Sequence record: PV159336
DNA length: 64,000 nucleotides
Origin: Escherichia phage W22
Direction: 5' to 3' (one strand)
The notes beneath the pieces are model-generated. The model was not told the origin of the DNA, did no database searches, and saw nothing but the letters and a program-made list of their open reading frames with translations. Of this stretch, positions 50,314-64,000 are shown in pieces; within the stretch, counting starts at the first letter, position 1, and each line of letters opens with the position of its first letter. The translations under genes and the position numbers were made by a program.

Positions 50314-50327
50314 GTAAGCCAGTAAAT

Positions 50328-50354
50328 AAAAACCCGCTTCGGCGGGTTTTCTTG
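50328..50354 (+). terminator. rho-independent terminator
   Basis: AAAACCCGC-TTCG-GCGGGTTTT hairpin then CTTG. Confidence 0.7.
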
Positions 50355-50387
50355 TATTGATGCCAGATTTAATAAAAGGAGTAGTAG

Positions 50388-51917: not shown

Positions 51918-52132
51918 TATTTTGAAAATTTTTATTTTTATAAAAAGGGGTGTGGGTTTCATGTACAGAAATTCACCCTCTGCACAGTATATCCAGAGTA
52001 AATATTATTCTGTACTCTGTTAATAAAGTATTTAATTTGTTTGTTGGATTATGGTATCTGATCTTTAAAAGGCATACTATCTCTTAACTACTACTTATAA
52101 CAGAACAGTAAAATCATTTTTATAAAAAGGAC

Positions 52133-52340
52133 AAAATTATTTAAAGTTTTTACAGATTTTTGGGTACAAATTTTGAAAATGAAAAGTTCAAGTTTGGTCA
52201 AAATTATTTAAAGTTTTTGTACGTATTTCTATCCAGATTTTGAAAATGAAAACTTCAATTTTTTAAAAATTCCCCAGTTTATTTAAAGTTTTTTTGCCTT
52301 TTTCCGTAGAAAAATCAAAAATGAAAAGTTCAATTTCGTG
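52133..52340. repeat. three tandem AT-rich direct repeats (about 67-77 bp units)
   Basis: Each unit has ATTTAAAGTTTTT (52139, 52206, 52281) and TGAAAATGAAAA(G/C)TTCAA (52174, 52241, 52316). Confidence 0.7.
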
Positions 52341-52359
52341 TTTTTATGGGTATGCGTAT

Positions 52360-52470
52360 GATAATCATTCTCATTTGTAAATGAGAATCATTATCATTTA
52401 ATTATGTAAATGATAAGCATTCTCACTAAGAGAATGAGAATCATTAGCAAATGAGAATTTTTCTCATTTA
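52360..52470. promoter_or_regulatory. palindromic operator-like array built on TGAGAAT/ATTCTCA
   Basis: Three inverted repeats: 52360-52395 (17-bp arms), 52418-52436, 52449-52469; at least 7 copies of the 7-mer in 110 bp. Confidence 0.6.
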
Positions 52471-52730
52471 CAGAATAACGCGCAGGGGCGGTGTTTGTCT
52501 CGCGCTCCCGTGTCCCCTCGCCATACAATAAGAATAGCATAACCAACAACAAAAGCAAGCGATTATTTTTATCTTTACATTTCTTTACAAATTTATTTTG
52601 GACGAGCTACCGGCGATCAACCTTCCAACCAGTGCCCCCTGGTATGTTAGCCCCGCCTTTACGCCGTGGGGGTGGCGTTTCCTCTTCTGTATGTAAAACA
52701 GTATAAGCCCGATCCCTGGGCTTGTCAAGA

Positions 52731-52997
52731 TTATTTTTTGTTTTCTTGCCAGGATAGGACACCTAACCAAAAATACATGTCGCCCCGCGCCCCTGGCGGG
52801 ATCTTGCTTTCCCCGCCGCCACTGCAAGCCCATAAATAACCATCAGCGAACGGATCAAAGTGATCTATCTCTTCCACCTTATGATCGCCCAGGTTGAGAA
52901 CGGTTTCAACCTTTAAGCCCGTTGCGCTTGCTACCTGGTGCACCGTGCCGCCTTGCCAGCCCAATGAGTGCATGAGATGTAAAGGAGTATTTGTCAT
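52731..52997 (-). CDS. hypothetical protein encoded in GC-rich island
   Basis: 88 aa ORF with AAGGG RBS; local GC content far above surrounding phage DNA. Confidence 0.3.
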   Translation of the reverse strand: MTNTPLHLMHSLGWQGGTVHQVASATGLKVETVLNLGDHKVEEIDHFDPFADGYLWACSGGGESKIPPGARGDMYFWLGVLSWQENKK

Positions 52998-53108
52998 GGT
53001 ATCGCCCTTTCTTTGATGTGCGCCCTGGTTGGCGCGGTAGAAAGATAATAGCCGTTTCCTTTATAGATAGCAAGCAAAAAAGAAATGAAAAAAAGATTAA
53101 AAAAATGG

Positions 53109-53170
53109 TTGACGTTCCTCACCTGGTAGCGTAGTATTCATCTTGTCGAGGGGCGGCAATAGTGCCGCTC
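53109..53170 (+). promoter_or_regulatory. sigma70-like promoter plus 5'-UTR hairpin cassette
   Basis: TTGACG 53109-14, 17 nt, TAGTAT 53132-37; hairpin GCGGCA-ATAG-TGCCGC 53153-68. Confidence 0.6.
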
Positions 53171-53192
53171 ATAACAGAAGAGAGAAATAATC

Positions 53193-53465
53193 ATGGCATC
53201 ATATAGCGCATCAATGATCGTAAAGGGTATCACTGGTAAACCTATGCGCGGTGGCGGATCTTTCGCTAACATCAATATTGATGGACGTTTATCCCTGGAC
53301 GCAGCGATCACAGTGGCACGGGAAACGTTTAAAAAAGAATGTAATTTCAATAAACAAGATTATCTCGGTTTCGCTATTGAAAAAACCGCGCGATTTGTGG
53401 ATTATAAAAGCCCGAAAATGATCGACACTACACTAAAAGCGCAAGATGTAGCGTTTTTGCTTTAA
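53193..53465 (+). CDS. hypothetical early protein
   Basis: 90 aa ORF downstream of promoter-hairpin cassette. Confidence 0.5.
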   Translation: MASYSASMIVKGITGKPMRGGGSFANINIDGRLSLDAAITVARETFKKECNFNKQDYLGFAIEKTARFVDYKSPKMIDTTLKAQDVAFLL

Positions 53466-53468
53466 GTC

Positions 53469-53528
53469 TTGACACTGAAAAATAATTTGGTAATATATAC
53501 TCCATAAGGCGGGAAATGGTTTCCCGCC
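53469..53528 (+). promoter_or_regulatory. sigma70-like promoter plus 5'-UTR hairpin cassette
   Basis: TTGACA 53469-74, TAATAT about 53491-96; hairpin GGCGGGAAA-TGG-TTTCCCGCC 53508-28. Confidence 0.65.
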
Positions 53529-53550
53529 AAAACAAAGAAAGGGTAACACA

Positions 53551-53913
53551 ATGAGCAAGCAAATCAATACTATCATGTTAAACCTGGTATCTTTCCGCGA
53601 TGACGTGAAAAACCTTTCGCGTGATGCAGTGGATGCACGGATCGAAAGCTATCGCACACAGATCGCAACGTTACCGCTGAAACGTGATCAACATGCCGCT
53701 AATATGATGCTTGATGCTATGATTAAAAAGATGATTCAATGTGATCTTACCCTGGCTTATGAATATGCTGGCGATCTCTTTGTAACATATAGCAAGCCCG
53801 TTCCAGGTATGAGCACCACGGAAGAATTGCATGCCTTAAATCTGCGACAAGATGCATGGGATAACATGCGCCGTGTTATGGTATGGGTAGAAAGCGGTAA
53901 AATTTACGAATAA
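53551..53913 (+). CDS. hypothetical early protein
   Basis: 120 aa ORF after cassette. Confidence 0.5.
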   Translation: MSKQINTIMLNLVSFRDDVKNLSRDAVDARIESYRTQIATLPLKRDQHAANMMLDAMIKKMIQCDLTLAYEYAGDLFVTYSKPVPGMSTTEELHALNLRQDAWDNMRRVMVWVESGKIYE

Positions 53914-53919
53914 AAACGG

Positions 53920-53973
53920 TTGACATTGCACTAAAACCTGATAAGCTATCTTAAAGCGGGAATAGTTCCCGCT
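53920..53973 (+). promoter_or_regulatory. promoter-like -35 plus 5'-UTR hairpin cassette
   Basis: TTGACA 53920-25 with weak -10; hairpin AGCGGGAA-TAG-TTCCCGCT 53955-73. Confidence 0.5.
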
Positions 53974-53991
53974 TACATAGGATAAAACTTT

Positions 53992-54138
53992 ATGAAACAA
54001 TATGTAATGAGTATTCATACCAAAAACGGCGCTACTGTTACGACTCCGGCACGGTTTGCACTTGTAAACCGTTGCAAGAGACTAAAACGAGAGCTAAAAA
54101 ATAACCGTGCAACGGGCTTTAAACGCTGGGGAGGATAA
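53992..54138 (+). CDS. small basic protein (48 aa), absent from ORF track
   Basis: ATG 53992 after hairpin; K/R-rich; stop TAA 54136-38. Confidence 0.4.
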   Translation: MKQYVMSIHTKNGATVTTPARFALVNRCKRLKRELKNNRATGFKRWGG

Positions 54139-54140
54139 TC

Positions 54141-54401
54141 TTGTTTTTTCTAAAAGTTTTTGATAATGTGATCGCTTTTGAACATGCTACAACGTTCGAC
54201 CTGGCGAGATACGCTATCAGGTTTAAAGATAATGTTTATCCCCGTGCTGGCGGCGGTTACACTATTTTTAATCATCGCAACGCGCAACTGACTGATGTAA
54301 CTAATCCAGATCCTGGAGTGTATCGGATAGGCTGGCTACCGTCAAAAGACGCTGCAAGCATGTTTAAGGTATGTAAACTACTAACAGAAGAGGCGAACTA
54401 G
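54141..54401 (+). CDS. hypothetical early protein
   Basis: TTG start with GGGAGG RBS (GTG alternative at 54168); 86 aa. Confidence 0.4.
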   Translation: MFFLKVFDNVIAFEHATTFDLARYAIRFKDNVYPRAGGGYTIFNHRNAQLTDVTNPDPGVYRIGWLPSKDAASMFKVCKLLTEEAN

Positions 54402-54402
54402 C

Positions 54403-54957
54403 ATGGGGCGTGAATATGTGATCCAGTCCTGGGTAAAGCATGACGCAAATGATCCGCGCATAATACCAGATGACATGATCGATCACATGGTAGGGTATAG
54501 CGGGGAGCAGATAGGAAATCGAGCGGCAAAGAGCAACGGCAACACCAGGACGAGATCCGTTCGCCCTGGATGGCTGGCGAATGGTAACGCTGACATTGCA
54601 AGCGCCGCAGATCCAAGCGATGACGCTAAAAATAATCCCTTATACAGCATTGATCCGGCTTTTAAGGTGTTGGAAGAGTATCCCGCTAAATTAGCCGCAC
54701 TAGACAAGGCATACGAAGAAAAGCGCATGGCCTGGACTGTATACAACACCGCTAAAATGGTGCTAGATGCAAAACTAATTAAAGCCCAGGAGAAGATCAA
54801 TAAACTTGTTACCATAGCACAAGAGGAAGACCAGGGCGACCAGGAGGAAGAGGAAGAAATCATGCCTACCTTGGAAGAGGAAGAGATCCAGCCATACATG
54901 CCGACGGAAGAGGAAAAAAGACAAGCCTTAAAAAATTATGAAAATTGCATTGTGTAA
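54403..54957 (+). CDS. hypothetical early protein with acidic C-terminal tail
   Basis: 184 aa; start overlaps upstream stop (TAGCATG); C-terminus EEDQGDQEEEEE. Confidence 0.5.
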   Translation: MGREYVIQSWVKHDANDPRIIPDDMIDHMVGYSGEQIGNRAAKSNGNTRTRSVRPGWLANGNADIASAADPSDDAKNNPLYSIDPAFKVLEEYPAKLAALDKAYEEKRMAWTVYNTAKMVLDAKLIKAQEKINKLVTIAQEEDQGDQEEEEEIMPTLEEEEIQPYMPTEEEKRQALKNYENCIV

Positions 54958-54960
54958 GGC

Positions 54961-55016
54961 TTGACATATGCAAACAAGCACCGTAATATATACCACATAG
55001 AACGGGGCAACGCCCC
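54961..55016 (+). promoter_or_regulatory. sigma70-like promoter plus 5'-UTR hairpin cassette
   Basis: TTGACA 54961-66, 17 nt, TAATAT 54984-89; hairpin GGGGC-AAC-GCCCC 55004-16. Confidence 0.6.
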
Positions 55017-55038
55017 ATAAAGTGAAATAAAAAATCAC

Positions 55039-55066
55039 TTGACACCTGAAATCAGTAAGCTATAAT
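55039..55066 (+). promoter_or_regulatory. sigma70-like promoter (tandem, no hairpin)
   Basis: TTGACA 55039-44, 16 nt, TATAAT 55061-66. Confidence 0.65.
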
Positions 55067-55103
55067 GCTTATATAAATTAAAGCGTTACTAAGGAATAAA
55101 ATC

Positions 55104-55469
55104 ATGGCTAAAAATATCAATGTTTCTGCTTATGCTACCCTGGCTAACACTGCTAAAATTGAACTGTCCAGCATTGAAGCGGTACATATTAGCGCCCGTC
55201 GCTGGTTTCAAAAGTCTTATGGTAATACTTATTTCTCTTTGATGGTTGACGTTGAGATCGGCGGTAAACTGATTGAAGTCGTTAACGTTCCGTTTCAATA
55301 TGGCTATGGGGATCATTTTGATACCGTTGCCCTAGAAGAGTTTAGCAAGGTTATCAACCTGGAAGGTAAAGAGTTTTCAAATTATGCTTACCTTTCCCGT
55401 TTTTGCCGTGACAATGGGATCGCTGTATACAGTCATGCAAGCGATGTAAAACGTAAAAAAGATTTATAA
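55104..55469 (+). CDS. hypothetical early protein
   Basis: 121 aa ORF with AAGGAA RBS. Confidence 0.5.
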   Translation: MAKNINVSAYATLANTAKIELSSIEAVHISARRWFQKSYGNTYFSLMVDVEIGGKLIEVVNVPFQYGYGDHFDTVALEEFSKVINLEGKEFSNYAYLSRFCRDNGIAVYSHASDVKRKKDL

Positions 55470-55475
55470 AAAGCA

Positions 55476-55533
55476 TTGACAGCACGAATAAAAAGCATAT
55501 AATACTTATATCGAGAGCGGGAATAGTTCCCGC
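55476..55533 (+). promoter_or_regulatory. sigma70-like promoter plus 5'-UTR hairpin cassette
   Basis: TTGACA 55476-81, 16 nt, TATAAT 55498-55503; hairpin GCGGGAA-TAG-TTCCCGC 55517-33. Confidence 0.7.
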
Positions 55534-55557
55534 CTCACTGAAAAAGAGATTAACATC

Positions 55558-55797
55558 ATGGCTAAATCTAAAATGTACAACGGTCACAAAAATAAAACTC
55601 ATTGGAATGTAAGCCTTTGGATTAATAACGATCCAGGTTTTTATAATATGGCAAAAGAATTTATAGCCGTGAACAACAATAAAGATAACGCCGCGCGTGA
55701 AATGATGTCACTACTTAACGAAATGGGCCAAAATACTACGCCAGATGGCTATAAATTCAGTAAAACCAGTATCCGCGCCGCTATGGTAGGAATGTAA
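55558..55797 (+). CDS. hypothetical early protein
   Basis: 79 aa ORF. Confidence 0.5.
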   Translation: MAKSKMYNGHKNKTHWNVSLWINNDPGFYNMAKEFIAVNNNKDNAAREMMSLLNEMGQNTTPDGYKFSKTSIRAAMVGM

Positions 55798-55806
55798 TAA
55801 AAGCAG

Positions 55807-55866
55807 TTGACAACGTTTTTTAATCTGGTATAGTTTATCACATAGGGCGGGAAATGGTTTCCCGCC
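55807..55866 (+). promoter_or_regulatory. sigma70-like promoter plus 5'-UTR hairpin cassette
   Basis: TTGACA 55807-12, 16 nt, TATAGT 55829-34; hairpin GGCGGGAAA-TGG-TTTCCCGCC 55846-66. Confidence 0.65.
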
Positions 55867-55888
55867 AAATGAAAGAAAGGTTATCATT

Positions 55889-56116
55889 ATGGCTATCGTT
55901 ATTGTTCGCGTATCCGGCACGGTTGGAATCTCCCAGGTAGTAGCAGTTATCACCGAGAAGAAAGGGGATGATCTTCACTCCTCCTTGAATAGCTGGGCGG
56001 TCGCTAACTTTGGGCAATGGTCGAGCGTTGAGTACATCGAATCCTACCAGGTGCCAACGATTAGCCTGACCGATCTCAATGTTGATCGTCTGTTATGCCT
56101 GGATGAATTAATCTGA
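55889..56116 (+). CDS. hypothetical early protein
   Basis: 75 aa ORF. Confidence 0.5.
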   Translation: MAIVIVRVSGTVGISQVVAVITEKKGDDLHSSLNSWAVANFGQWSSVEYIESYQVPTISLTDLNVDRLLCLDELI

Positions 56117-56125
56117 AAAAGATTG

Positions 56126-56181
56126 TTGACACGGGAAAGAAAAAGAGTAAACTGTATTACGTAGGGCGGCAATAGTGCCGC
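56126..56181 (+). promoter_or_regulatory. sigma70-like promoter plus 5'-UTR hairpin cassette
   Basis: TTGACA 56126-31, 16 nt, TAAACT 56148-53; hairpin GCGGCA-ATAG-TGCCGC 56166-81. Confidence 0.55.
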
Positions 56182-56206
56182 TCATAACAGAAGAGAGATT
56201 ATCACG

Positions 56207-56422
56207 ATGGTTAATATCCGCACACTGTTAAAAAATGCAAGTCAAGTTTTATTTTCAGATGACGAGTATTTCAACAAAGACATTACAGGCGTGAAAAATT
56301 TAAAAGACGTGAAGGATGTTATCGGTATCCGTGGATCTTTACGTAAAGGTGACATATACGGTAACAAGGTGCAATATAAACTGTCAAAAGATTATGATTT
56401 TACTTTGACAATTATTTCATAA
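56207..56422 (+). CDS. hypothetical early protein
   Basis: 71 aa ORF. Confidence 0.5.
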   Translation: MVNIRTLLKNASQVLFSDDEYFNKDITGVKNLKDVKDVIGIRGSLRKGDIYGNKVQYKLSKDYDFTLTIIS

Positions 56423-56428
56423 AACTAC

Positions 56429-56489
56429 TTGCAAACCTGGTAAAATAAAGTAAACTATATTCATTAAGGCGGTGGAATAGCCCACCGCC
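56429..56489 (+). promoter_or_regulatory. sigma70-like promoter plus 5'-UTR hairpin cassette
   Basis: TTGCAA 56429-34, 16 nt, TAAACT 56451-56; hairpin GGCGGTGG-AATAGC-CCACCGCC 56468-89. Confidence 0.5.
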
Positions 56490-56512
56490 TAACAAAGAGA
56501 AGAGGAAACATC

Positions 56513-56683
56513 ATGATCACTTTCGCTACCCGTGAAGCCGCTCGCAACGTTGCACGTAAAGTTAATGCCGCCAACCTGGGCGCTACGCTTAAAGCCCCGG
56601 TTAAAGATGAATCAGGAAAATGGATCTTCCCTGGTCTGCGTCACGCTGATAAGCTGGGAACATTAACGTTAAAAAATAAATAA
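56513..56683 (+). CDS. small protein (56 aa), absent from ORF track
   Basis: ATG 56513 after hairpin; GAGGAAA RBS. Confidence 0.4.
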   Translation: MITFATREAARNVARKVNAANLGATLKAPVKDESGKWIFPGLRHADKLGTLTLKNK

Positions 56684-56690
56684 TATTCGC

Positions 56691-56749
56691 TTGACAGTAG
56701 CATCATTTATAAGTAAAGTAACAACAACGGCGGGAAATGGTTTCCCGCC
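56691..56749 (+). promoter_or_regulatory. sigma70-like promoter plus 5'-UTR hairpin cassette
   Basis: TTGACA 56691-96, 17 nt, TAAAGT 56714-19; hairpin GGCGGGAAA-TGG-TTTCCCGCC 56729-49. Confidence 0.6.
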
Positions 56750-56769
56750 ATCAATAAAGAGATAAGATT

Positions 56770-57129
56770 ATGAAATCAGTAAAAGCAATTAAAACTTACA
56801 TTGTGTCGGCTATTTCTTTTGATGGTACTACAACCGAAAAAGAAAAGATCACCGAACTGATGCGCCGTTTTAACTCTGAATACTGGTATCAATCTAATCG
56901 TGATCGTTATAATAACAATATGGTACAAGGTGTCAAAAGCTGGTTACAAGGTTTACCGTCAGATATCAATATCGCTTTTAATTATAACGAGATCGATCAA
57001 TTATTAATTGAATGGAAGTACATAAAAGAAACAAGCAAAGAAACAACCGTTACCCGTGAGCGGGAAAATTATTGGTTATATATTGCAAGCATGATCGTAA
57101 CTTTGGCAAAATATCATAACGTAGCGTAA
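56770..57129 (+). CDS. hypothetical early protein
   Basis: 119 aa ORF. Confidence 0.5.
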   Translation: MKSVKAIKTYIVSAISFDGTTTEKEKITELMRRFNSEYWYQSNRDRYNNNMVQGVKSWLQGLPSDINIAFNYNEIDQLLIEWKYIKETSKETTVTRERENYWLYIASMIVTLAKYHNVA

Positions 57130-57143
57130 TCGAGAGGAAAAAC

Positions 57144-57281
57144 ATGAACGCATCACAGCAGATCGAAAAATTCAACCGCAATAAAGCGCGTAAAGATTGG
57201 AACGAAGAGATCACCAAGAAAGGCGACAAGCGGAACAAAACAAAAAGAGATCGCAGCAGCAAAAGATACTGGAACGAATAA
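57144..57281 (+). CDS. small highly basic protein (45 aa), absent from ORF track
   Basis: ATG 57144 with GAGAGGAAA RBS; K/R-rich; followed by terminator. Confidence 0.4.
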   Translation: MNASQQIEKFNRNKARKDWNEEITKKGDKRNKTKRDRSSKRYWNE

Positions 57282-57283
57282 CA

Positions 57284-57308
57284 AAAAGGGCGCAATAAGC
57301 GCCCTTTT
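57284..57308 (+). terminator. rho-independent terminator
   Basis: AAAAGGGCGC-AATAA-GCGCCCTTTT. Confidence 0.7.
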
Positions 57309-57398
57309 AGCTTATATAGAGGCTTGTTGCTTATAGGCAAGGGTAACGCCAGGATAAGCCTATAAACCACGTTAGACGGCTTTACAGGAGCTTTAAAA

Positions 57399-57581
57399 AT
57401 GAAATTAGAGGAAATAAGCAAGGCACTAGCCCAGGGGCAAAGGTTATGCGCCCGATATCGTGATCAATATGGTTTCATAACTAGCGGCGTGATCCTGGGG
57501 ATTGAAGACAATAAGATTTTTATTGACACGTTGAAAAACGTTGTATATAGTGACAATATAATCTCAATAAAACATATATGA
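57399..57581 (+). CDS. hypothetical early protein
   Basis: 60 aa ORF with CAGGAG RBS. Confidence 0.4.
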   Translation: MKLEEISKALAQGQRLCARYRDQYGFITSGVILGIEDNKIFIDTLKNVVYSDNIISIKHI

Positions 57582-57589
57582 GGCAAGAA

Positions 57590-57991
57590 ATGAAAAAATT
57601 ATTGATAGCTGGTTTAATCTCTTTTGGCATGGTTGGAACATCTAGCGCGGCGATATCCTCCACAGTAGCAGAATTAAGCGCCGTTGATGCAATGGAAAAC
57701 GTCATGATCATTAATAATGCGATCCCCGATGAAATCATGGAGGATTCACACATGATCGCTTATGGTGCTGTTACACAATTAACGGCAAAAATAGATAAAT
57801 CTATTGTTAATGGCTTAAATGAAGATGTACCATGTGAAATTATTACCAGTGTGCTAACGACTCAAAATTTTACGCCGTGGTTAAAAAGTATTCAAAAAGT
57901 ACACAGTACAGCCGCAGATCGTAGCAATGAAAAACTAGTGTCAGCACTTGCAACGTATACCCTAGCAAAATGCACCGAAATAAAAGATTGA
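57590..57991 (+). CDS. secreted early protein
   Basis: Start taken at MKKLLIAGL (GAGG RBS); signal peptide ending SSAAIS. Confidence 0.5.
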   Translation: MKKLLIAGLISFGMVGTSSAAISSTVAELSAVDAMENVMIINNAIPDEIMEDSHMIAYGAVTQLTAKIDKSIVNGLNEDVPCEIITSVLTTQNFTPWLKSIQKVHSTAADRSNEKLVSALATYTLAKCTEIKD

Positions 57992-58016
57992 CAACATAGA
58001 AAGCACGTTATAAGAT
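57988..58016 (+). promoter_or_regulatory. sigma70-like promoter (no hairpin)
   Basis: TTGACA 57988-93, 17 nt, TAAGAT 58011-16. Confidence 0.5.
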
Positions 58017-58038
58017 ACACACAACAAAGGAGAACTAC

Positions 58039-58341
58039 ATGAACGGCATAGCTAAAACGTTTTTTCTTTTTTCTGGTGTAAATGACCCATCAATAAAAGT
58101 CGATAGCGTAAAAGAAAACAATACTATCACCGCTAAATTATTTCAAGATGAAACAAATAACGTGCTAATCATTAATCTTAAAGAAATAACAAAAGGTTAT
58201 TATACTATTGCTTACCATGCGATCTATAATGCTGATACTAGTGAGGAAGTGCAAACAAGCAACAACGAAAGCGCGGCGCTACCTGGTGATCTGGTGCTGG
58301 GCGTTATCAGTTTAATTGTCAATGATTTTTTTAAGGAGTAA
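58039..58341 (+). CDS. hypothetical early protein
   Basis: 100 aa ORF with AAGGAG RBS. Confidence 0.5.
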   Translation: MNGIAKTFFLFSGVNDPSIKVDSVKENNTITAKLFQDETNNVLIINLKEITKGYYTIAYHAIYNADTSEEVQTSNNESAALPGDLVLGVISLIVNDFFKE

Positions 58342-58345
58342 AACC

Positions 58346-58441
58346 ATGCCCTATTTACATTTATTTTTCGGGATCTTATTGACAGGATCTTTTTTCTTCT
58401 GTATGCTTGTTTCTATTGTAAACCACGTTTTAAAACATTAA
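58346..58441 (+). CDS. hydrophobic micro-protein (31 aa), absent from ORF track
   Basis: ATG 58346 with TAAGGAG RBS; single predicted TM helix. Confidence 0.35.
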   Translation: MPYLHLFFGILLTGSFFFCMLVSIVNHVLKH

Positions 58442-58599
58442 GGAAACAGCATGAAAATTATTCCCGTACAGTATAGCGTAATAAATCCAGCATATGAGGA
58501 AGGAAGGAAAACAAGCATGGCTTTATGTTGTATTGCTACTATAGCCATGTTATTATACACTGTGTTTTAATAGGTTTTATAGTTGTACGCTTTAAAGGC

Positions 58600-58627
58600 T
58601 TGACAATTTTTTGTTATGCTTTAAAAT
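58600..58627 (+). promoter_or_regulatory. sigma70-like promoter (no hairpin)
   Basis: TTGACA 58600-05, 16 nt, TAAAAT 58622-27. Confidence 0.45.
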
Positions 58628-58670
58628 ATATCTTGAAAACGGCAAAGGCCGCAAACAAAAGGGTAAAATT

Positions 58671-58994
58671 ATGAAATCTGTGATCGGTGTTTATTTGGAT
58701 AACTCTGATTTTTTCTATCATCGTGCGCGTTTACTTGATGCGATTGAAATGATAGAATCAGGCTTTAAAGAGTATCGCCTTGCACATGATGACCTGGAAG
58801 CATTACAGGGCAATAGTGTTTTTACATTGCAAGCTAAAGCACTATGTAAAAGCCGGATCGACATTGCAAGCAAAAAGATAGAACGCGGCATGTCCTGGTT
58901 GCGCACCGCAGAAATCAACATGGGGCAATGGTACGGCGAAAACTTAGAAAATAAACTCACTTTTGTAAATGTAGAAAATATTAAAGATTATTGA
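58671..58994 (+). CDS. hypothetical early protein
   Basis: Start taken at MKSVIGV, downstream of promoter; 107 aa. Confidence 0.45.
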   Translation: MKSVIGVYLDNSDFFYHRARLLDAIEMIESGFKEYRLAHDDLEALQGNSVFTLQAKALCKSRIDIASKKIERGMSWLRTAEINMGQWYGENLENKLTFVNVENIKDY

Positions 58995-59056
58995 TTGACA
59001 GCACACCTGATAAGTAATATATTGTATCTCATAGAGCGGGGAAATGGTTTCCCCGC
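58995..59056 (+). promoter_or_regulatory. sigma70-like promoter plus 5'-UTR hairpin cassette
   Basis: TTGACA 58995-59000, -10 TATATT about 59018-23; hairpin GCGGGGAAA-TGG-TTTCCCCGC 59036-56. Confidence 0.6.
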
Positions 59057-59076
59057 CTTAACAGAAGAGATAAGAT

Positions 59077-59361
59077 ATGAAGATCACAAAAGCACTTTCC
59101 AACTATGCAGCACGTCGCGGCTTATGCTTAACCGTTGAAAACTTAGGGAAAGAAGATTTTTTGTGCTTTTGGGAGCTTGAGAATGATAATGAGTGGATCT
59201 TCTCTTATTCTATCTGCAAAGATCAAAATGGTTGCTTGTTAACCTGGCGCGGTAATATCTATTTGCCGGAAGAAATAAAACAAGAATTACCAGGCACGAT
59301 CATGACTGAGAAACAGCTTAAGGAAGTGATCAATTTTGTAGGGCAAAACATTAAAAAATAA
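59077..59361 (+). CDS. hypothetical early protein
   Basis: 94 aa ORF. Confidence 0.5.
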   Translation: MKITKALSNYAARRGLCLTVENLGKEDFLCFWELENDNEWIFSYSICKDQNGCLLTWRGNIYLPEEIKQELPGTIMTEKQLKEVINFVGQNIKK

Positions 59362-59362
59362 T

Positions 59363-59423
59363 TTGACAGTAGGCAAACAACGTAGTAAAGTTTATCACAT
59401 AGGGCGGGAAATGGTTTCCCGCT
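59363..59423 (+). promoter_or_regulatory. sigma70-like promoter plus 5'-UTR hairpin cassette
   Basis: TTGACA 59363-68, 17 nt, TAAAGT 59386-91; hairpin GGCGGGAAA-TGG-TTTCCCGCT 59403-23. Confidence 0.6.
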
Positions 59424-59445
59424 CACAGCAGAAGAGAAACAAATC

Positions 59446-59616
59446 ATGATCCCAACTATGTTTTACGTATCGCGCAAAGGTCACAATATTTTTTGGTCTG
59501 AAGATTTAAATGAAGCCATGACGTTTGCCCGTGATCGTGTTGCTATCGGTGGCGTTAATATTACCGTAACCGATGAAAACGGCATTGAATACTATAACGG
59601 CGACGATGAAGAGTAA
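59446..59616 (+). CDS. small protein (56 aa), absent from ORF track
   Basis: ATG 59446 after hairpin; acidic C-terminus. Confidence 0.4.
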   Translation: MIPTMFYVSRKGHNIFWSEDLNEAMTFARDRVAIGGVNITVTDENGIEYYNGDDEE

Positions 59617-59623
59617 TTAATAA

Positions 59624-59644
59624 GGCGGGGGAGTATTCCCCGCC
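59624..59644 (+). promoter_or_regulatory. stand-alone 5' hairpin (no recognisable promoter)
   Basis: GGCGGGG-GAGTATT-CCCCGCC between two ORFs; may terminate upstream or mark a processed 5' end. Confidence 0.45.
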
Positions 59645-59663
59645 ATCAATAAAGAGATAAATC

Positions 59664-59933
59664 ATGAAAATATCATTGGACGTTGCAATCAAGGCCATCG
59701 AATCCGGTTACACCCTGGTAAAAGATGATAAGGCTAAAATAGTGCATCATGTTAGCAAGGAAACAGGCGAAAGCATGATCACATATAAAGCCGCCTACTT
59801 TCTCCAATCAGTAGCAGATCCGCGCGTACAGCGCCAGGTCACGGCGGCTATTGCTAAAAAATTATGTGCTTTACAGGGCACAAGTTTTAACGAGATCCCG
59901 CCGTGTTTTGACTGGTCGAGCTTGAAAAAATAG
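59664..59933 (+). CDS. hypothetical early protein
   Basis: 89 aa ORF. Confidence 0.5.
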   Translation: MKISLDVAIKAIESGYTLVKDDKAKIVHHVSKETGESMITYKAAYFLQSVADPRVQRQVTAAIAKKLCALQGTSFNEIPPCFDWSSLKK

Positions 59934-59934
59934 T

Positions 59935-59990
59935 TTGACAATAATTATAAATAGGGTAGAATGTATTGCGTAGGGCGGCAATAGTGCCGC
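59935..59990 (+). promoter_or_regulatory. sigma70-like promoter plus 5'-UTR hairpin cassette
   Basis: TTGACA 59935-40, 16 nt, TAGAAT 59957-62; hairpin GCGGCA-ATAG-TGCCGC 59975-90. Confidence 0.65.
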
Positions 59991-60013
59991 TCACAACTAA
60001 AAGAGAAATCATC

Positions 60014-60208
60014 ATGGCGCTTAAAAAACTAACAAGCAATACTCGTTGGGATGAAATTGACGGGGAAGTATACATTTTCGCCCGTAAACCAGGTGATCAA
60101 AAATGGTCAAAGGCTTTTACTTGTCACCCTGCAACAATAGATCTAATAAAAAGTAAAGGTTTTCGTGAAGCAGTAGCGAGAAGTTTACTGATCCCTTGTA
60201 AAAAATAG
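60014..60208 (+). CDS. hypothetical early protein
   Basis: Start taken at MALKKL (track ORF runs through the hairpin); 64 aa. Confidence 0.45.
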   Translation: MALKKLTSNTRWDEIDGEVYIFARKPGDQKWSKAFTCHPATIDLIKSKGFREAVARSLLIPCKK

Positions 60209-60209
60209 T

Positions 60210-60269
60210 TTGACAATATGCGGTTATCTGGTAAAGTGTACCACGTAGGGCGGGAAATGGTTTCCCGCC
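60210..60269 (+). promoter_or_regulatory. sigma70-like promoter plus 5'-UTR hairpin cassette
   Basis: TTGACA 60210-15, 16 nt, TAAAGT 60232-37; hairpin GGCGGGAAA-TGG-TTTCCCGCC 60249-69. Confidence 0.6.
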
Positions 60270-60287
60270 AGAATAGAGAGAACTAAA

Positions 60288-60392
60288 ATGATTATTCTTA
60301 CCATGATGTGCGCGGCGGTTATTATTCCTTTGATAACGCTTATTGTTTCTGAGATCGATGATCTTCTCTTTGAAAGAAGTTTAAAAAAGTAA
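60288..60392 (+). CDS. hydrophobic micro-protein (34 aa), absent from ORF track
   Basis: ATG 60288 after hairpin; single TM helix. Confidence 0.35.
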   Translation: MIILTMMCAAVIIPLITLIVSEIDDLLFERSLKK

Positions 60393-60455
60393 TTGACAAC
60401 GGCTAATAAGCTGATAATATGTATCACATAGGGCGGGGCAATAAGGCAACGCCCA
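60393..60455 (+). promoter_or_regulatory. sigma70-like promoter plus degenerate hairpin
   Basis: TTGACA 60393-98, 16 nt, TAATAT 60415-20; imperfect hairpin GGGCG...CGCCC 60431-55. Confidence 0.5.
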
Positions 60456-60472
60456 CTAATGAGGGTAGCATC

Positions 60473-60577
60473 ATGTTAGAGAAAATTTTCACGGTTGTAA
60501 TAGTGGGCCTGGCGTTATCGGTTGGAGTGATTGCAACTATGGCTAACATGATCCTATCTTCCCACGGTATTGGATAA
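60473..60577 (+). CDS. hydrophobic micro-protein (34 aa), absent from ORF track
   Basis: ATG 60473; single TM helix. Confidence 0.35.
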   Translation: MLEKIFTVVIVGLALSVGVIATMANMILSSHGIG

Positions 60578-60587
60578 GGTGAAACAA

Positions 60588-60803
60588 ATGATCACGAATA
60601 AGACAGGTAAAACGGAATTTTTACGCGGCTTGCAAATAGGTAAACCTGAGATCTGGTATTGCACTAAAACACCACGTGACGAAATGAAAGACTTTACCGC
60701 CACGCTGAAGCGGGTAAAGATATCTATTACGCAGAAAAAAGCCTTGATAGTAGTAGAAAACGAGATCCCGCAAACCATTATTATTGTTGAGCGTACAGCA
60801 TGA
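60588..60803 (+). CDS. hypothetical early protein
   Basis: Start taken at MITNKTGK with AAGGTGAAA RBS; 71 aa. Confidence 0.45.
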   Translation: MITNKTGKTEFLRGLQIGKPEIWYCTKTPRDEMKDFTATLKRVKISITQKKALIVVENEIPQTIIIVERTA

Positions 60804-61186
60804 AAACAGAAATCATTAACGAAATGATCAACGGCTATAAAGAAGCCTTTATTTTTGCTGAACCAGCGACGGATCACAATGGGGAATATATTGAGAATCT
60901 AGACGATTATGATTTTTCTTCTAGCGCCCTGAAACGTATTACCAGCGATGTGACCGCCTTTTGTAATGCCAATGTTGCCGCTATCTCTGAGGCAATGAGC
61001 GACGGCGCTACAGCAAACCAGATCGGGAATGATTTACATTTTACCCGTAACGGTCACGGCGTAGGCTTTTGGGATCGCCCTGAAATATACACCACTAACA
61101 CGGCGAACCGCCTAACAAATGCCGCTAAATTAATGCCATCGGTGCATGCTTACATTGGTGAAGATAATTTGATTTATATTGAATAA
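60800..61186 (+). CDS. hypothetical early protein
   Basis: 128 aa; ATGA overlap with upstream stop. Confidence 0.5.
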   Translation: MKTEIINEMINGYKEAFIFAEPATDHNGEYIENLDDYDFSSSALKRITSDVTAFCNANVAAISEAMSDGATANQIGNDLHFTRNGHGVGFWDRPEIYTTNTANRLTNAAKLMPSVHAYIGEDNLIYIE

Positions 61187-61192
61187 AAAGTA

Positions 61193-61251
61193 TTGACACC
61201 GATCCCCAGTATGGTATTATTTACCACGTAGGCGGGAAATGGTTTCCCGCC
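61193..61251 (+). promoter_or_regulatory. sigma70-like promoter plus 5'-UTR hairpin cassette
   Basis: TTGACA 61193-98, 16 nt, TATTAT 61215-20; hairpin GGCGGGAAA-TGG-TTTCCCGCC 61231-51. Confidence 0.65.
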
Positions 61252-61274
61252 AGGTAATCAAAAAGGTAAATACT

Positions 61275-61664
61275 ATGCGCAACCTGGTTTCTGTTTCTAA
61301 CGTTGAAAAATTCCAATCCTTGCAGGGTATCGTTAACAACGTAGCGCCTTTTTTAGTCAATGGCTTGATTGCAAAGATGAAAAATAAACATCATGCCGCA
61401 TGGTCTGCTTACTGCTTTGACAATGATGAAAAAGCGGCTGAAATGATGTTAAATATGCTGTTAGACAGTGTAGAATCATCTTTACCGGAAAACATCGCAG
61501 AAGAGATCACCTATCGTTATAATATGGCGATCACTTACCAGGAGGTTGCGCAATTTAATATGATGGACGATGACGAACAACAGGATCAGGAAATTTTCTG
61601 GGAGTATGCTGATCGTCAATCGGCTTTTGATGAAAAGTTAGCGATGTATTATAATGAATATTAA
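61275..61664 (+). CDS. hypothetical early protein
   Basis: Start taken at MRNLVSV after the hairpin; 129 aa. Confidence 0.5.
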   Translation: MRNLVSVSNVEKFQSLQGIVNNVAPFLVNGLIAKMKNKHHAAWSAYCFDNDEKAAEMMLNMLLDSVESSLPENIAEEITYRYNMAITYQEVAQFNMMDDDEQQDQEIFWEYADRQSAFDEKLAMYYNEY

Positions 61665-61676
61665 TACACGGTAAAA

Positions 61677-61705
61677 GAAAGGGGCGCACTAAGCGCCCTT
61701 TTTTG
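61677..61705 (+). terminator. rho-independent terminator
   Basis: GGGGCGC-ACTAA-GCGCCC then TTTTTTG. Confidence 0.7.
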
Positions 61706-61978
61706 TATTCTTTTTTCACGATGGAAACAACACGTAAAGAATAGGCGTAAAGGTGGCGTAAAACAGCCTAAAACCGATTATAACCGCTTAAACAAGGTAG
61801 GGATGATTAATCACCTTACCAGGATGAAAAAGCCGTTATAAAGCTATCTAGAGCGTTTAAAGCACATAGGGAATAATTTGCTTTTTATCTTGCCTTTTAT
61901 TCTGCTTTTGATTATTATTATGGAACGGGCGGCACCTGGGGACAGGGGAAGATAATCACCGGACGACCCCGCTATATA

Positions 61979-61999
61979 TTGATAGCTAACATCTATCAA
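61979..61999. promoter_or_regulatory. inverted repeat, candidate operator
   Basis: TTGATAG-CTAACAT-CTATCAA, 50 bp upstream of promoter at 62049. Confidence 0.35.
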
Positions 62000-62048
62000 A
62001 CAACAAAACATCAAAGAAATAAACTATCAAATCTTTACAATCTCATCT

Positions 62049-62077
62049 ATTGACCGATAAATCATAGCAGTTTAATA
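62049..62077 (+). promoter_or_regulatory. sigma70-like promoter (no hairpin)
   Basis: TTGACC 62049-54, 17 nt, TAATAT 62072-77. Confidence 0.55.
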
Positions 62078-62126
62078 TTGTTTTTAGAGGGTAGAACATA
62101 CCCAAAACGAAAACAGGAAAAAGAAA

Positions 62127-62363
62127 ATGAAAGAAGTCATGATCCTCAAAAAATCACCTATTTTACGTGGTGGCTTTATCGCTTACTCTGATGATCTGTT
62201 AATTGCAACGGTTGCAAAAATACTAAAATCAGAAGAGGATAGTAAAAACGGCGTTTATCGTATCTGTTTCACCCGTGGGAAATTGCAAGGCAAGATCGCC
62301 TATGCTTTTGATTTACAAGATGTAAATGATAAAATCTGCGCTGTTATTGATTATGCAAAATAA
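62127..62363 (+). CDS. hypothetical early protein
   Basis: 78 aa ORF with AGGAAAAAGAAA RBS. Confidence 0.5.
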   Translation: MKEVMILKKSPILRGGFIAYSDDLLIATVAKILKSEEDSKNGVYRICFTRGKLQGKIAYAFDLQDVNDKICAVIDYAK

Positions 62364-62375
62364 TGAACTTTCTTA

Positions 62376-62404
62376 TTGACACCGGATCACGCTTACATTA
62401 TTAT
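62376..62404 (+). promoter_or_regulatory. sigma70-like promoter with lost hairpin
   Basis: TTGACA 62376-81, 17 nt, TATTAT 62399-62404; conserved CACGTAGGGC start motif present but stem absent. Confidence 0.5.
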
Positions 62405-62450
62405 TTATCACGTAGGGCAAATCATTTTAAACGGTAAACGAGGAAACACC

Positions 62451-62834
62451 ATGAGCAATATCATCAACCTGGCAGCGACTGTAAACGGTAAAGACTTTAA
62501 CGGCGCTGTAGACCGTGATCCTATGTGGTGCTTATCAGTGTTTAAAGGCGACCTGGTTGAAGTTAGAACAACCGAAGGGTATAGCGATGATTATAAATGC
62601 GAGATCCATTTACATAACTGGTACACGGGTAAAACTTATGCGCTGAATCACGCGTTTATCGGGAAAATTGAATATCGCGAAATGATCGACGAAGAAACGG
62701 GGCAAGATTTTAGCGATTATGTTTATATTCGTTCCGAAACATTAGCCGAACGGTTGATCGAGAAAATGAAAGCAAAAAATAAAATTAATTTATCTCATTG
62801 GATTGATATAACAAACGATCCAGCTTATCAGTAA
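62451..62834 (+). CDS. hypothetical early protein
   Basis: Start taken at MSNIINL; 127 aa. Confidence 0.5.
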   Translation: MSNIINLAATVNGKDFNGAVDRDPMWCLSVFKGDLVEVRTTEGYSDDYKCEIHLHNWYTGKTYALNHAFIGKIEYREMIDEETGQDFSDYVYIRSETLAERLIEKMKAKNKINLSHWIDITNDPAYQ

Positions 62835-62848
62835 ATAACATTCCATAC

Positions 62849-62876
62849 AAGGGCGCAATAAGCGCCCTTTCTTTTT
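62849..62876 (+). terminator. rho-independent terminator
   Basis: GGGCGC-AATAA-GCGCCC then TTTCTTTTT; same hairpin as 57288-57304. Confidence 0.7.
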
Positions 62877-63169
62877 ACCTCAATAAAGATGATAGCTTTT
62901 ACCTATCAAAAACGTTCACCGAAAAAAGTGAATAGATCGCGGTATCGAGCTAATCAAGGAGCAGATGAATAACCATACCATGAAGATCATAAGGCGCTTA
63001 CAACGTGTTTTAGACCGCTTATTTTTAATTTCTCCATGTAACTATCTGGCAAAAACAGCCTTTTTCTTATCTTTCCTCTTAAATAATAATCATTCTCATT
63101 TATAGCTGATTATTTATGCAATAAACTGAATAATGCAATAATGATAATCATTCTTAACTTAAGACCATC

Positions 63170-63480
63170 TAACCTATAAAATAATAAGTTATCTAACTAA
63201 ATTAAAACTAATTATCTTACTTTTATTTATAACTTACTGTTACTATCTCATTGATAACCTTATATTAAACAACAATAACTAATATAAATCATTACTAAGC
63301 TAAATATAATCTATCTAACCTTTAAAACTATAACTATAATCTATTTAATTATTGCACAAAGTAACTATTAAATCGTTAGTAACATTACTAAATAATTAAT
63401 ATCCTATCTATTTATGATCTAATCTTTACCTTACTATCTATTACCTAAATAATCATTTCATACCGTAATCATTTCATACA
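63170..63480. repeat. G-depleted, extremely AT-rich low-complexity tract
   Basis: About 10 G in 300 nt on + strand; built from CTAA/TTAT/ATCT-type words; no ORF. Confidence 0.7.
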
Positions 63481-63523
63481 ATAATTATAACAAGAAATAT
63501 AATTCGCAAGCGTATCATTAGCA

Positions 63524-63692
63524 GCCTATGCCGGACACATAGGCGGCTAATAATAACGCAACTACACACCTCACATAATAACTATCACCGATAGTTATTA
63601 TCTGTGCTTATGTAGCTTGCAACAATTGCAAGCGCAACAATATACACGGTATATTGTATTCCCTTACATTGTTGCGGTGCGTTATTATTAGC
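63524..63692. repeat. cluster of nested inverted repeats (cruciform/structured-RNA candidate)
   Basis: GCTAATAATAACGC 63546-59 pairs with 63679-92; inner IRs at 63524-44, 63576-63600 (11-bp arms), 63615-33, 63633-76. Confidence 0.65.
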
Positions 63693-63900
63693 TAATGTTT
63701 AGAACATTGGCTATAATATAAGCTATCCAATAATAAACATAGTGAATAATGACCCTGATGATCATAATGCGCCACCTTCCAGGGGGCGCTATGTGAACAC
63801 AAAGAAATCTTTCTTGTCAAGAAAAATATTACCATTATTGCGCAAAATTATTTACATCTGAATAGATGGTTTTTCATACTATTGGCCCAATGTAACTTGT

Positions 63901-64000
63901 CATTTGTTGAGCATAGTTATAGCCTATTTGTTGCAATGTATCTTCCTATTTGTTGCCCTAACTATTGCTATTTGTTGGGTACAACTATTCCTATTTGTTG
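63901..64000. repeat. iteron-like array: five copies of C(T/A)ATTTGTTG at 22-23 bp spacing, running off window edge
   Basis: Copies at 63901, 63924, 63946, 63968, 63991. Confidence 0.7.

Follow-up and report, generated by a model that had tools for sequence, protein, structure and literature searches.

A covarying bottom-strand fold beside a G-poor AT tract near the genome end of phi92-like phages

The right-hand end of a 64,000-nucleotide (nt) stretch of Escherichia phage W22 (record PV159336; "the window" below means this whole stretch) carries a region without credible genes in which a long, nearly G-free AT-rich tract is followed by nested inverted repeats. We report that the repeats form a single-copy element of ~180 to 200 nt (63524-63692 plus a flank from 63494), that it is the bottom strand that folds, and that compensatory changes preserve the pairing in all sampled genera of the phage subfamily. 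A megablast search with positions 62800-64000 matched 70 phage records, 55 of which span most of the query at 90 to 99% identity. The close matches were phi92, alia, VEcB, Paula, BME3, and their relatives, members of Justusliebigvirus (Stephanstirmvirinae) with genomes of ~146 kb, and judged by this similarity the window is that of a phi92-like myovirus of the same genus.

In annotated relatives, the element lies in a gap without credible genes that runs from the homologue of phi92 gp248 to the first genes, gp001 and gp002; the neighboring genes are annotated as small hypothetical proteins. The gp248 (Gp30.8-like) homologue, at 62451-62834, is the last annotated gene to the left of the gap. 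Behind it stands a top-strand intrinsic terminator (62849-62869; an 8-bp stem with six G-C pairs and a T-run), which is annotated as such in phage Paula, was the only terminator returned by a terminator scan, and forms the left edge of the noncoding right-end region. A small top-strand open reading frame (ORF) of 46 amino acids follows at 62965-63105, with an AAGGAG ribosome-binding site ahead of it and a hydrophobic C-terminal half. Among 10 relatives, 11% of its columns vary, mostly through what we read by eye as synonymous changes, and although it is annotated in one record only and has no intrinsic terminator of its own, it is probably a real small gene and the true last gene on the top strand. 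From the last gene to the right copy of the direct terminal repeat (DTR), the noncoding stretch measures ~1.1 kb, with the AT tract and the folded element at its core. No credible ORF was found in 63170-63692, as an earlier sequence-only reading of these positions had also concluded, and the substitutions there follow paired stems, not codons. "Hypothetical proteins" of 25 to 47 amino acids have been annotated on both strands over 63474-63835 (PQ226818.1, PP925843.1, PQ438393.1, and other records); given the covariation pattern described below, those lying over the element are over-calls.

The element opens with a conserved flank (63494-63523), consisting of AAT[AC]ATT and then ATCATTAGC, which leads into a hairpin, P1 (63524-63530/63538-63544), with compensatory double changes at 3 of its 7 pairs and every alignment cell (100%) paired. 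The remainder is a four-way junction (63546-63692) in which a long-range stem, P2, closes P3, P4, and P5. P2 is the outer inverted repeat of the sequence-only reading, which placed it correctly but gave it 14 bp; it is perfect over 15 bp (63546-63560/63678-63692). P3 (63562-63566/63611-63615) carries an inner stem, P3b (63578-63586/63590-63598), P4 is a simple hairpin (63616-63622/63626-63632), and P5 (63633-63641/63668-63676) has an inner hairpin of its own. These three hairpins and their inner stems are the palindromes already noticed inside the outer repeat, with P1 just outside it. Because the linkers at the junction are 0 to 1 nt long, P2, P3, P4, and P5 make up a compact four-way junction. 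A 201-nt segment folds with z-scores of -8.9 (DNA), -7.0 (RNA, top strand), and -7.8 (RNA, bottom strand), and 0 of 200 shuffled sequences folded as well. The sequence TAT[CT]ATTAGC occurs three times, at 63513-63522, at 63546-63555 (inverted), and at 63683-63692, so P1 can be extended at the cost of the outer part of P2: the ATTAGC of the flank can pair with 63546-63551, and the P1-extending arms are 18 nt long and 89% complementary. In the Klebsiella-phage lineage, WATTAGC is present in 10 copies within or to the right of the element, versus 2.1 expected.

Within the genus, a 231-nt segment around the repeats is 95 to 99% identical. A further 76 records, from other genera, match this 231-nt segment only, at 73 to 80%, and in them the AT tract and all sequence to the right are unalignable. 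These genera include Phapecoctavirus, the phiWec179/181/188 group, Citrobacter phage Tr1, and Klebsiella phages, and the element was present in every Stephanstirmvirinae lineage sampled. We gathered element sequences from annotated records, IMG/VR, and metagenome contigs by an invariant-pattern scan, and a covariance model extracted 33 copies, 32 of them distinct. Two sets of pattern hits were dropped: three metagenome matches (L027, L030, and L036), which were chance matches to the P4 palindrome, and four bacterial-genome matches (L048-L051), which were chance matches to GCTAATAATA-NNN-CAACTACAC, that is, a P2 arm and its adjacent segment. The model gave one copy in the 64-kb window, no further copy in 100 kb of phi92 and of PQ226818, and no copy in four distant relatives (L012-L015, among five loci in all) that had been fetched through the gp248 protein and are without both the AT tract and the element.

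Covariation across these sequences supports the fold. On the top strand of a 25-sequence alignment (A3), RNAalifold recovered P1, P2, P3b, and P4, with 13 of 39 pairs changed on both sides; on the reverse complement, its prediction rose to 47 pairs without a single broken cell, both partners had changed in 14 of them, and the energy was -57.9 kcal/mol versus -50.7 for the top strand. When the structure was scored explicitly, 98.2% of cells were paired, compared to 20 to 45% when the partners were slid by 1 to 3 columns, and the covariation score of 0.189 (0.057 shuffled) was reached in 0 of 500 shuffles. The compensatory changes in P1 comprise GC/CG swaps at two adjacent pairs and a change from UA to CG, while those in the long-range stem P2 run from CG to GC, from GC to CG or AU, and from AU to CG; a further P2 swap, from AU to UA, is found in arall, a genome only ~5% diverged. 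Strong conservation extends to the unpaired segments GUGUAGUUG, GUGUAAGCG, and GUGUCCGG. Together with the z-scores, these results bear out the earlier suggestion of a structured noncoding element.

Two parts of the element vary in another manner. The 3-nt loop of P3b (63587-63589) reads ACC in some genomes and the complement, GGT, in close relatives, and palindromic inserts have arisen in the interior of P5 (63642-63667) on separate occasions, once in Justusliebigvirus and once in KP2025; the base of P5 is kept (CGCAAC...GTTGCG versus CGTAAT...ATTACG) and the inserts are lineage specific. From their sequence, the loop inversion and the inserts look like hallmarks of hairpin-mediated template switching in DNA.

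The wobble pairs reveal which strand is under selection. Read on the minus strand, the 47 pairs in 32 distinct sequences give 1,504 cells, of which 1,419 are Watson-Crick, 85 are G·U, and 0 are mismatched. The same 85 cells are A·C mismatches on the plus strand. The alignment of these 32 sequences was fitted to a minus-strand model, but independent MAFFT alignments agree with it: in the plus-strand alignment, all departures from Watson-Crick pairing are A·C or C·A, with no G·U among them. Ten positions carry wobbles, all on one strand (roughly P = 0.002 if the strands were equally likely). The minus strand is also the more stable in 32 of 32 sequences, both with RNA parameters (-78.7 versus -61.2 kcal/mol, a difference of 17.5) and with DNA parameters (-45.8 versus -40.6 kcal/mol, a difference of 5.2). 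Because the wobble cells are G·U on the minus strand only, we conclude that the folded strand is the bottom strand and not, as the sequence-only reading had it, the strand that was read. That reading was right about folding; the symmetric double-stranded cruciform that it also envisaged is disfavored by the one-sided G·U pairs, which rule out a symmetric duplex, cruciform, or operator as the selected form. The folded molecule is likelier RNA than unwound DNA.

To the left, the element adjoins the AT-rich tract (63156-63505, core 63170-63480), which is nearly free of G on the top strand and of C on the bottom strand and begins ~50 nt past the stop codon of the 46-amino-acid ORF. Its core bears out the description of an AT tract depleted of G, with over 80% A+T: the 311 nt comprise 128 A, 51 C, 10 G, and 122 T (3.2% G, 80.4% A+T, and a C/G ratio of 5.1), compared to window means of 17.9% G and 62.2% A+T. 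No other 311-nt stretch on either strand has so low a G fraction (the minimum for C anywhere is 9%), and the tract is the only region of the window above 78% A+T. Within the genus, 14.5% of its columns vary, about as in neighboring sequence, compared to 9.5% in the element, and between genera it is unalignable. Its composition is more widespread: over the 300 nt that precede the element, C exceeds G in 14 of 14 lineages (skew, +0.17 to +0.66), with 66 to 81% A+T. YC dinucleotides number 28 on the plus strand versus 4 on the minus strand, and C shows a weak periodicity of ~5 nt; a search of the tract for A-tract phasing or curvature found no 10- to 11-bp periodicity. RNA of the top-strand tract would have no capacity for G-C pairing, and minus-sense tract RNA would be 55% purine without G runs and, in Phapecoctavirus, rich in U and G. 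Near the element, the tract contains a 16-bp top-strand tandem repeat, TAATCATTTCATACM (63450-63481), in one to four copies among relatives. AATCATT thereby recurs in one to four tandem units of 15 to 16 bp, and other genera have pairs of AATCATT at this spacing on the same side of the element.

The tract resembles a Rho-dependent terminator (rut site; C-rich, G-poor, unstructured RNA behind a stop codon) in that its top-strand RNA would have more C than G and would be unstructured and untranslated downstream of an ORF. Typical rut sites are much shorter and less extreme than this tract with its 3% G over 311 nt, and the likeness accounts for the tract only, not for the folded element. On its composition, the most economical reading of the skew is a one-way transcription gate, in which rightward RNA would be a Rho substrate and C-less leftward RNA would escape Rho.

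To the right, the element is followed by a genus-conserved spacer (63693-63885; 13% variable columns in the genus alignment) with a G+C hairpin (63769-63789), the palindrome TTTCTTGTCAAGAAA (63809-63823), and degenerate ATTAGC-type motifs. Next come the iterons that the sequence-only reading had seen after the repeats: five top-strand copies of YTATTTGTTG at 63899-64000, four of them exact CTATTTGTTG at a spacing of 22 to 23 bp and one degenerate. Published DTRs from the subfamily measure 328 bp for Schickermooser (PMC6563267) and, as derived with PhageTerm, 342 bp for BME3 (PMC12210895) and 317 bp for FKP3 (PMC11663894), and a DTR of 343 bp is annotated at both ends in the phi92 and UAB_1 records. 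The left DTR boundary reads ...CCTATTTGTTG|AGCCTACTTT, with the repeat starting straight after the last iteron (TTGTTG|AGCCTAC in relatives). The last letters of the window, up to 64000, belong to an iteron, which puts the start of the right DTR at the window end or just past it. The sequence GTTR|AGC is common to both DTR boundaries (TTGTTG|AGCC on the left and CGTTA|AGCA on the right), and in the Klebsiella-phage lineage TGTTGAGC is repeated two or three times upstream of the boundary.

Comparison with the genome ends of relatives, which the sequence-only reading had proposed, thus places the region 170 to 470 bp inside the right DTR, with the iterons abutting the DTR boundary. The outer inverted repeat of phi92 stops ~250 bp short of the DTR; this gap measures ~470 bp in the Klebsiella-phage lineage (KP13-26/FKP3, with the FKP3 repeat mapped onto KP13-26), and in Phapecoctavirus a homologous boundary motif, GCTCAACA, lies ~195 bp from the element. 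The iterons number from one to at least five among genomes more than 90% identical in the region. Because their copy number varies among such close relatives, we assign them to the repeat boundary or cleavage site and not to an origin, which modifies the earlier view of them as part of an origin-like or packaging-like region: a DTR boundary or cleavage motif fits better than essential origin iterons. On sequence, the iterons and boundary motifs are a candidate terminase cleavage motif.

Several observations concern the terminal repeats of individual records. In the closest relative (PQ226818, our L003), a DTR segment of ~104 bp (5301-5404), which would lie just beyond the window end, is inverted relative to BME3, Paula, and phi92 and is bordered by GGCACTATT/AATAGTGCC-like inverted repeats. 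Since gp053 of phi92 is annotated as a resolvase-family DNA invertase, this segment may be an invertible switch within the terminal repeat. The BME3 and FKP3 GenBank records hold extra, misjoined terminal repeat copies: in BME3 (PP239276.1), positions 1 to 788 are duplicated near the end of the record and the "DTR-L" feature is 73 bp off, and in FKP3 (PP895363.1) the 317-bp repeat is present three times. In phiWec187 (LC739536.1), which is without a gp248 homologue, the record's ends overlap by 148 bp at a place ~3.2 kb upstream of the element instead of at the phi92-type repeat, so this is probably a product of assembly and not a physical end.

The element is undescribed: it falls outside all Rfam families and is absent from the literature we found. 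At gathering thresholds, Rfam 15 gave 0 matches in the whole window; under permissive settings, the best subthreshold match was BsrG (21 bits versus a threshold of 55; E = 0.013), which we judged spurious. ARAGORN found no tRNA or tmRNA gene in 50000-64000, and literature searches yielded no description of the element. A retron-like msr/msd arrangement was considered, as the outer inverted repeat is preceded by UAGC, and set aside; no reverse transcriptase appeared in the portions of the phi92 annotation and the neighboring loci viewed. Sites resembling sigma-70 promoters are not enriched (13 versus 9.7 expected), and T4-type late promoters (TATAAATA) are neither enriched nor suitably placed.

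As to function, the sequence-only reading had offered an origin, a packaging region, or a structured noncoding RNA; what stands is a highly structured single-stranded element in a genome-end control region. Among the three, we tentatively favor, while granting that it could well be wrong, a replication-initiation or priming module at the genome end, with the folded strand present as a leftward transcript or as unwound bottom strand. The element would act as a single strand of bottom-strand polarity, most likely as a leftward transcript and less likely as unwound bottom DNA, and would work in cis with the adjacent, easily melted tract, which in the bottom-strand sense lies on its 3' side (~350 bp, 80% A+T). 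In such a module, recognition or positioning would fall to the folded domain, proteins would bind the repeated ATTAGC and AATCATT motifs, and unwinding would take place in the AT tract. The strand bias would make top-strand read-through RNA a good Rho substrate and leave leftward RNA invisible to Rho, so that the tract might serve as a one-way transcription gate protecting the terminal cis elements; the boundary iterons would belong to the terminase cleavage site and not to the origin. In favor of this proposal, no other 300 bp of the 64 kb are as rich in A+T as the tract, short direct-repeat arrays lie beside the element, and the C>G skew, with its excess of YC on the plus strand, is common to all 14 lineages in its sign. 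The 80% A+T of the tract over 311 to 350 bp, unique in the window, is what is expected of the DNA unwinding element of an iteron-type theta origin (lambda ori, plasmid oriV). Such origins also have initiator-binding direct repeats in fixed copy number; here, the CTATTTGTTG repeats, spaced at 22 to 23 bp, vary in number among close relatives and abut the DTR, and ATTAGC and AATCATT arrays are present as well. The ATTAGC and AATCATT motifs look, as sequences, like protein-binding sites in duplex DNA, which pulls the interpretation toward a cis-acting DNA region.

A number of findings weigh against a replication module. No gene annotated as an initiator adjoins, and 62835-64000 contains no DnaA box (TTWTNCACA) and no IHF site (WATCAANNNNTTR), with one relaxed DnaA-like match. 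A lineage-by-lineage scan found no conserved minus-strand promoter and none that was convincing in Justusliebigvirus. A -10-like TAnAAT adjoins the 5' arm of P2 in only 4 to 5 of 11 lineages and would start the RNA inside P2; behind P1 there is no terminator. The C>G skew is explained more simply by a Rho-dependent terminator behind the last top-strand ORF, and in Phapecoctavirus leftward tract RNA would be rich in U and G, which makes an R-loop primer thermodynamically unattractive in that genus. The tract would not provide the G-rich or purine-rich RNA of a persistent R-loop hybrid, and the idea of an R-loop primer is weakened by base composition in the other genera. G·T wobbles are the best-tolerated mismatches in DNA, so the wobble pattern leaves RNA and single-stranded DNA unseparated, and the literature searched held no transcript or replication data for this phage group.

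Some of the same evidence would suit a stable, trans-acting, protein-binding noncoding RNA encoded on the bottom strand, such as a host-takeover, antidefense, or regulatory small RNA, an explanation that we place second, as unlikely but worth serious thought. The element would then merely reside in the terminal region, and the AT tract would be a Rho-dependent terminator or a spacer with no relation to it. Functional RNAs classically betray themselves by covariation with strand-specific G·U pairs, and the unpaired segments are conserved as expected for contacts with protein or RNA. Cross-genus conservation begins exactly at the first base of P2, TAnAAT lies beside P2 in several lineages, and the element is single copy, like a gene. 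Such a gene would nonetheless have no clear promoter in Justusliebigvirus, no terminator, and no Rfam relative, and the element is embedded in DNA repeat arrays typical of cis-acting sites and always lies between the AT tract and the terminal repeat. A further alternative, in our view slightly less likely again, is a signal for packaging or concatemer processing: terminase or a helper would recognize the right end, package leftward, and cut or duplicate the DTR as in T7/T3, with the folded strand as a processing intermediate. The element lies 170 to 470 bp inside the right DTR in all lineages, with ATTAGC arrays between the two, short repeats beside the DTR boundary, and GTTR|AGC at both boundaries. 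The left end carries early-looking genes; by analogy with T7, the left end would probably be ejected first and the right end packaged first. The short DTRs with defined ends (343 bp in phi92 and UAB_1, 317 bp in FKP3), the adjacent short repeats, and the motif shared by both cut sites are likewise those of a T7-type junction. Terminase small subunits, however, bind double-stranded repeats and need no long-range intramolecular pairing, and the strict one-strand G·U pattern speaks against a duplex or cruciform target. Neither the distance from element to DTR nor the intervening sequence is conserved between genera.

A variant of the replication module would dispense with transcription: the bottom strand, exposed as single-stranded DNA by melting of the tract or by a passing fork, would itself carry a priming signal like those of G4 or the ssi sites of RSF1010. 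Promoter absence would then be no problem, the fold is strand specific, as are the stable single-stranded DNA hairpins of such signals, and the minus strand is favored with DNA parameters too, in 32 of 32 sequences. The element adjoins the most AT-rich tract, and the P3b loop inversion and palindromic P5 inserts are typical of template switching in DNA. We nonetheless hold this variant to be improbable. Synthesis would run rightward and reach the linear genome end after ~0.6 kb, the conserved G·U pairs at helix ends are more RNA-like, and there is no conserved primase motif, the GTGTC of the P1 loop being GTTTC in the Klebsiella-phage lineage. The simplest alternative, an AT-rich spacer with chance palindromes and no specific function, can appeal to the ease with which AT-rich DNA yields short inverted repeats and to the many two-copy repeats here that are at chance level, but it is refuted for practical purposes by fold z-scores down to -8.9, by 14 covarying pairs with 0 mismatches over 32 sequences from several genera, and by an element that is 95 to 99% identical within the genus and 73 to 80% identical across genera between unalignable flanks. 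More speculatively, and with little confidence, the element could be an undescribed class of phage RNA, ~180 nt long with a four-way junction, that acts where the genome of a large myovirus with terminal repeats ends. Such an RNA might be a primer or organizer RNA for end-proximal replication initiation, or a packaging or concatemer-processing cofactor like packaging RNA (pRNA), paired with a C-free, "Rho-proof" leader that would spare the untranslated transcript.

Known systems share parts of this arrangement. The T7/T3 junction reportedly combines a right-end pac region, SRL/SRR arrays beside a 160-bp DTR, a secondary origin (phiOR), and a proposed hairpin intermediate, as is said to have been described by Dunn and Studier in 1983 and by Chung, Nardone, and Hinkle in 1990. 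The genome end studied here resembles it in its short DTR, short-repeat arrays at the DTR boundary, noncoding dyad-symmetric region just inside the right end, and early genes at the left end. It differs in belonging to a 146-kb myovirus with, as far as annotated, no phage RNA polymerase, in having a 180-nt multibranch fold that covaries on one strand instead of a simple palindrome, and in showing no sequence similarity. Transcript-primed (R-loop) origins, such as those of ColE1 (RNA II), T4 (ori(uvsY) and ori(34)), and T7 (primary origin), likewise place an AT-rich unwinding element behind a folded RNA domain and are asymmetric between the strands downstream of the fold; here there is neither a convincing promoter nor a G-rich, hybrid-forming run, and the Phapecoctavirus tract RNA would be rich in U and G, which disfavors a stable hybrid. 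Single-strand initiation (ssi) signals include phage G4 ori-c, the M13 minus-strand origin, F Frpo, and RSF1010 ssiA/ssiB, which lie beside iterons and an AT-rich segment. They too are strand-specific DNA hairpin clusters, of ~100 to 150 nt, beside an AT-rich region and short repeats. These systems act on genomes or plasmids with a single-stranded stage or strand-displacement replication, and the present element is larger, is a closed four-way junction, and has no cognate primase or initiator identified.

With phi29 pRNA (RF00044), the element has in common an RNA-like design of ~170 nt around a multihelix junction at the noncoding end of a linear phage genome. It differs in that RF00044 gave no match and that the P3b and P4 loops, compared by eye, show no covarying loop-loop complementarity; phi29-like phages, moreover, are small, protein primed, and without terminal-repeat cleavage. 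The first-step-transfer injection-stop region of T5 is said (Heusterspreute, 1987; Davison, 2015) to hold repeats, palindromes, and DnaA boxes in ~1.7 kb of noncoding DNA within the DTR. It is similar as a large noncoding stretch near a genome end full of direct and inverted repeats, but it lies inside a 10-kb DTR at the first-entering end, DnaA boxes are absent here, and the one-strand covariation of our element favors a single-stranded form.

The element bears on how replication starts and concatemers are processed in large virulent short-DTR phages (phi92, phAPEC8, and relatives), which are widely used in therapy collections, e.g., BASEL and the Intesti cocktails. It offers as handles a single-copy structure with 14 covarying pairs, a functional strand, and a defined position beside the DTR boundary. 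If it acts as RNA, it would be a new structured RNA family missing from Rfam; if as DNA, it would be a rare covariation-supported single-strand signal in a double-stranded DNA phage. It can also aid annotation, both of the short proteins over-called across it and of the DTRs misjoined in several GenBank records.

Apart from the element, two motifs resembling Fur boxes or AATGAGAATCATTCTCATT-like operators (63082-63096 and 63137-63155) stand at the left border of the AT tract. Motifs near the Escherichia coli Fur box (GATAATGATAATCATTATC) or the palindrome AATGAGAATCATTCTCATT occur at 39460, 52377, 52430, and 63137, as well as at 63082-63096, and the Fur consensus has four matches in the window versus 0.05 expected. 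Similar motifs lie within the terminal repeat of PQ226818, at 5261 and ~5447. To judge from their sequence, host Fur or a phage repressor might bind there. In a short-word comparison of 63100-64000 with the rest of the window, the sole shared item was the operator motif at 52358-52371. It falls within a second large noncoding or regulatory region (51920-53190), in which three tandem units of ~67 bp (AAAATTATTTAAAGTTTTT...TGAAAATGAAAAGTTCAA) and five operator-like palindromes clustered at 52355-52470 are joined by a minus-strand ORF (52731-52997) that may encode a regulator and, near 53110-53140, by a strong sigma-70-like promoter. The sequence AAAGGGG(G)TGTG recurs at transcription-unit starts, at 51945 in the window and at 5595-5610 and 5673-5690 in PQ226818; the latter two copies are just past the terminal repeat, with GGTATA 12 to 13 nt downstream. 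This recurrence suggests that it may be a phage-specific promoter element, and a similar sequence, GGGGTGTGTAG, is found on the minus strand of the folded element. Finally, five "Campylobacter phage" records (MG065639, MG065645, MG065656, MG065689, and MG065650; host given as C. jejuni) share ~96% identity with these coliphages over this region, and on that similarity their host assignment looks doubtful.

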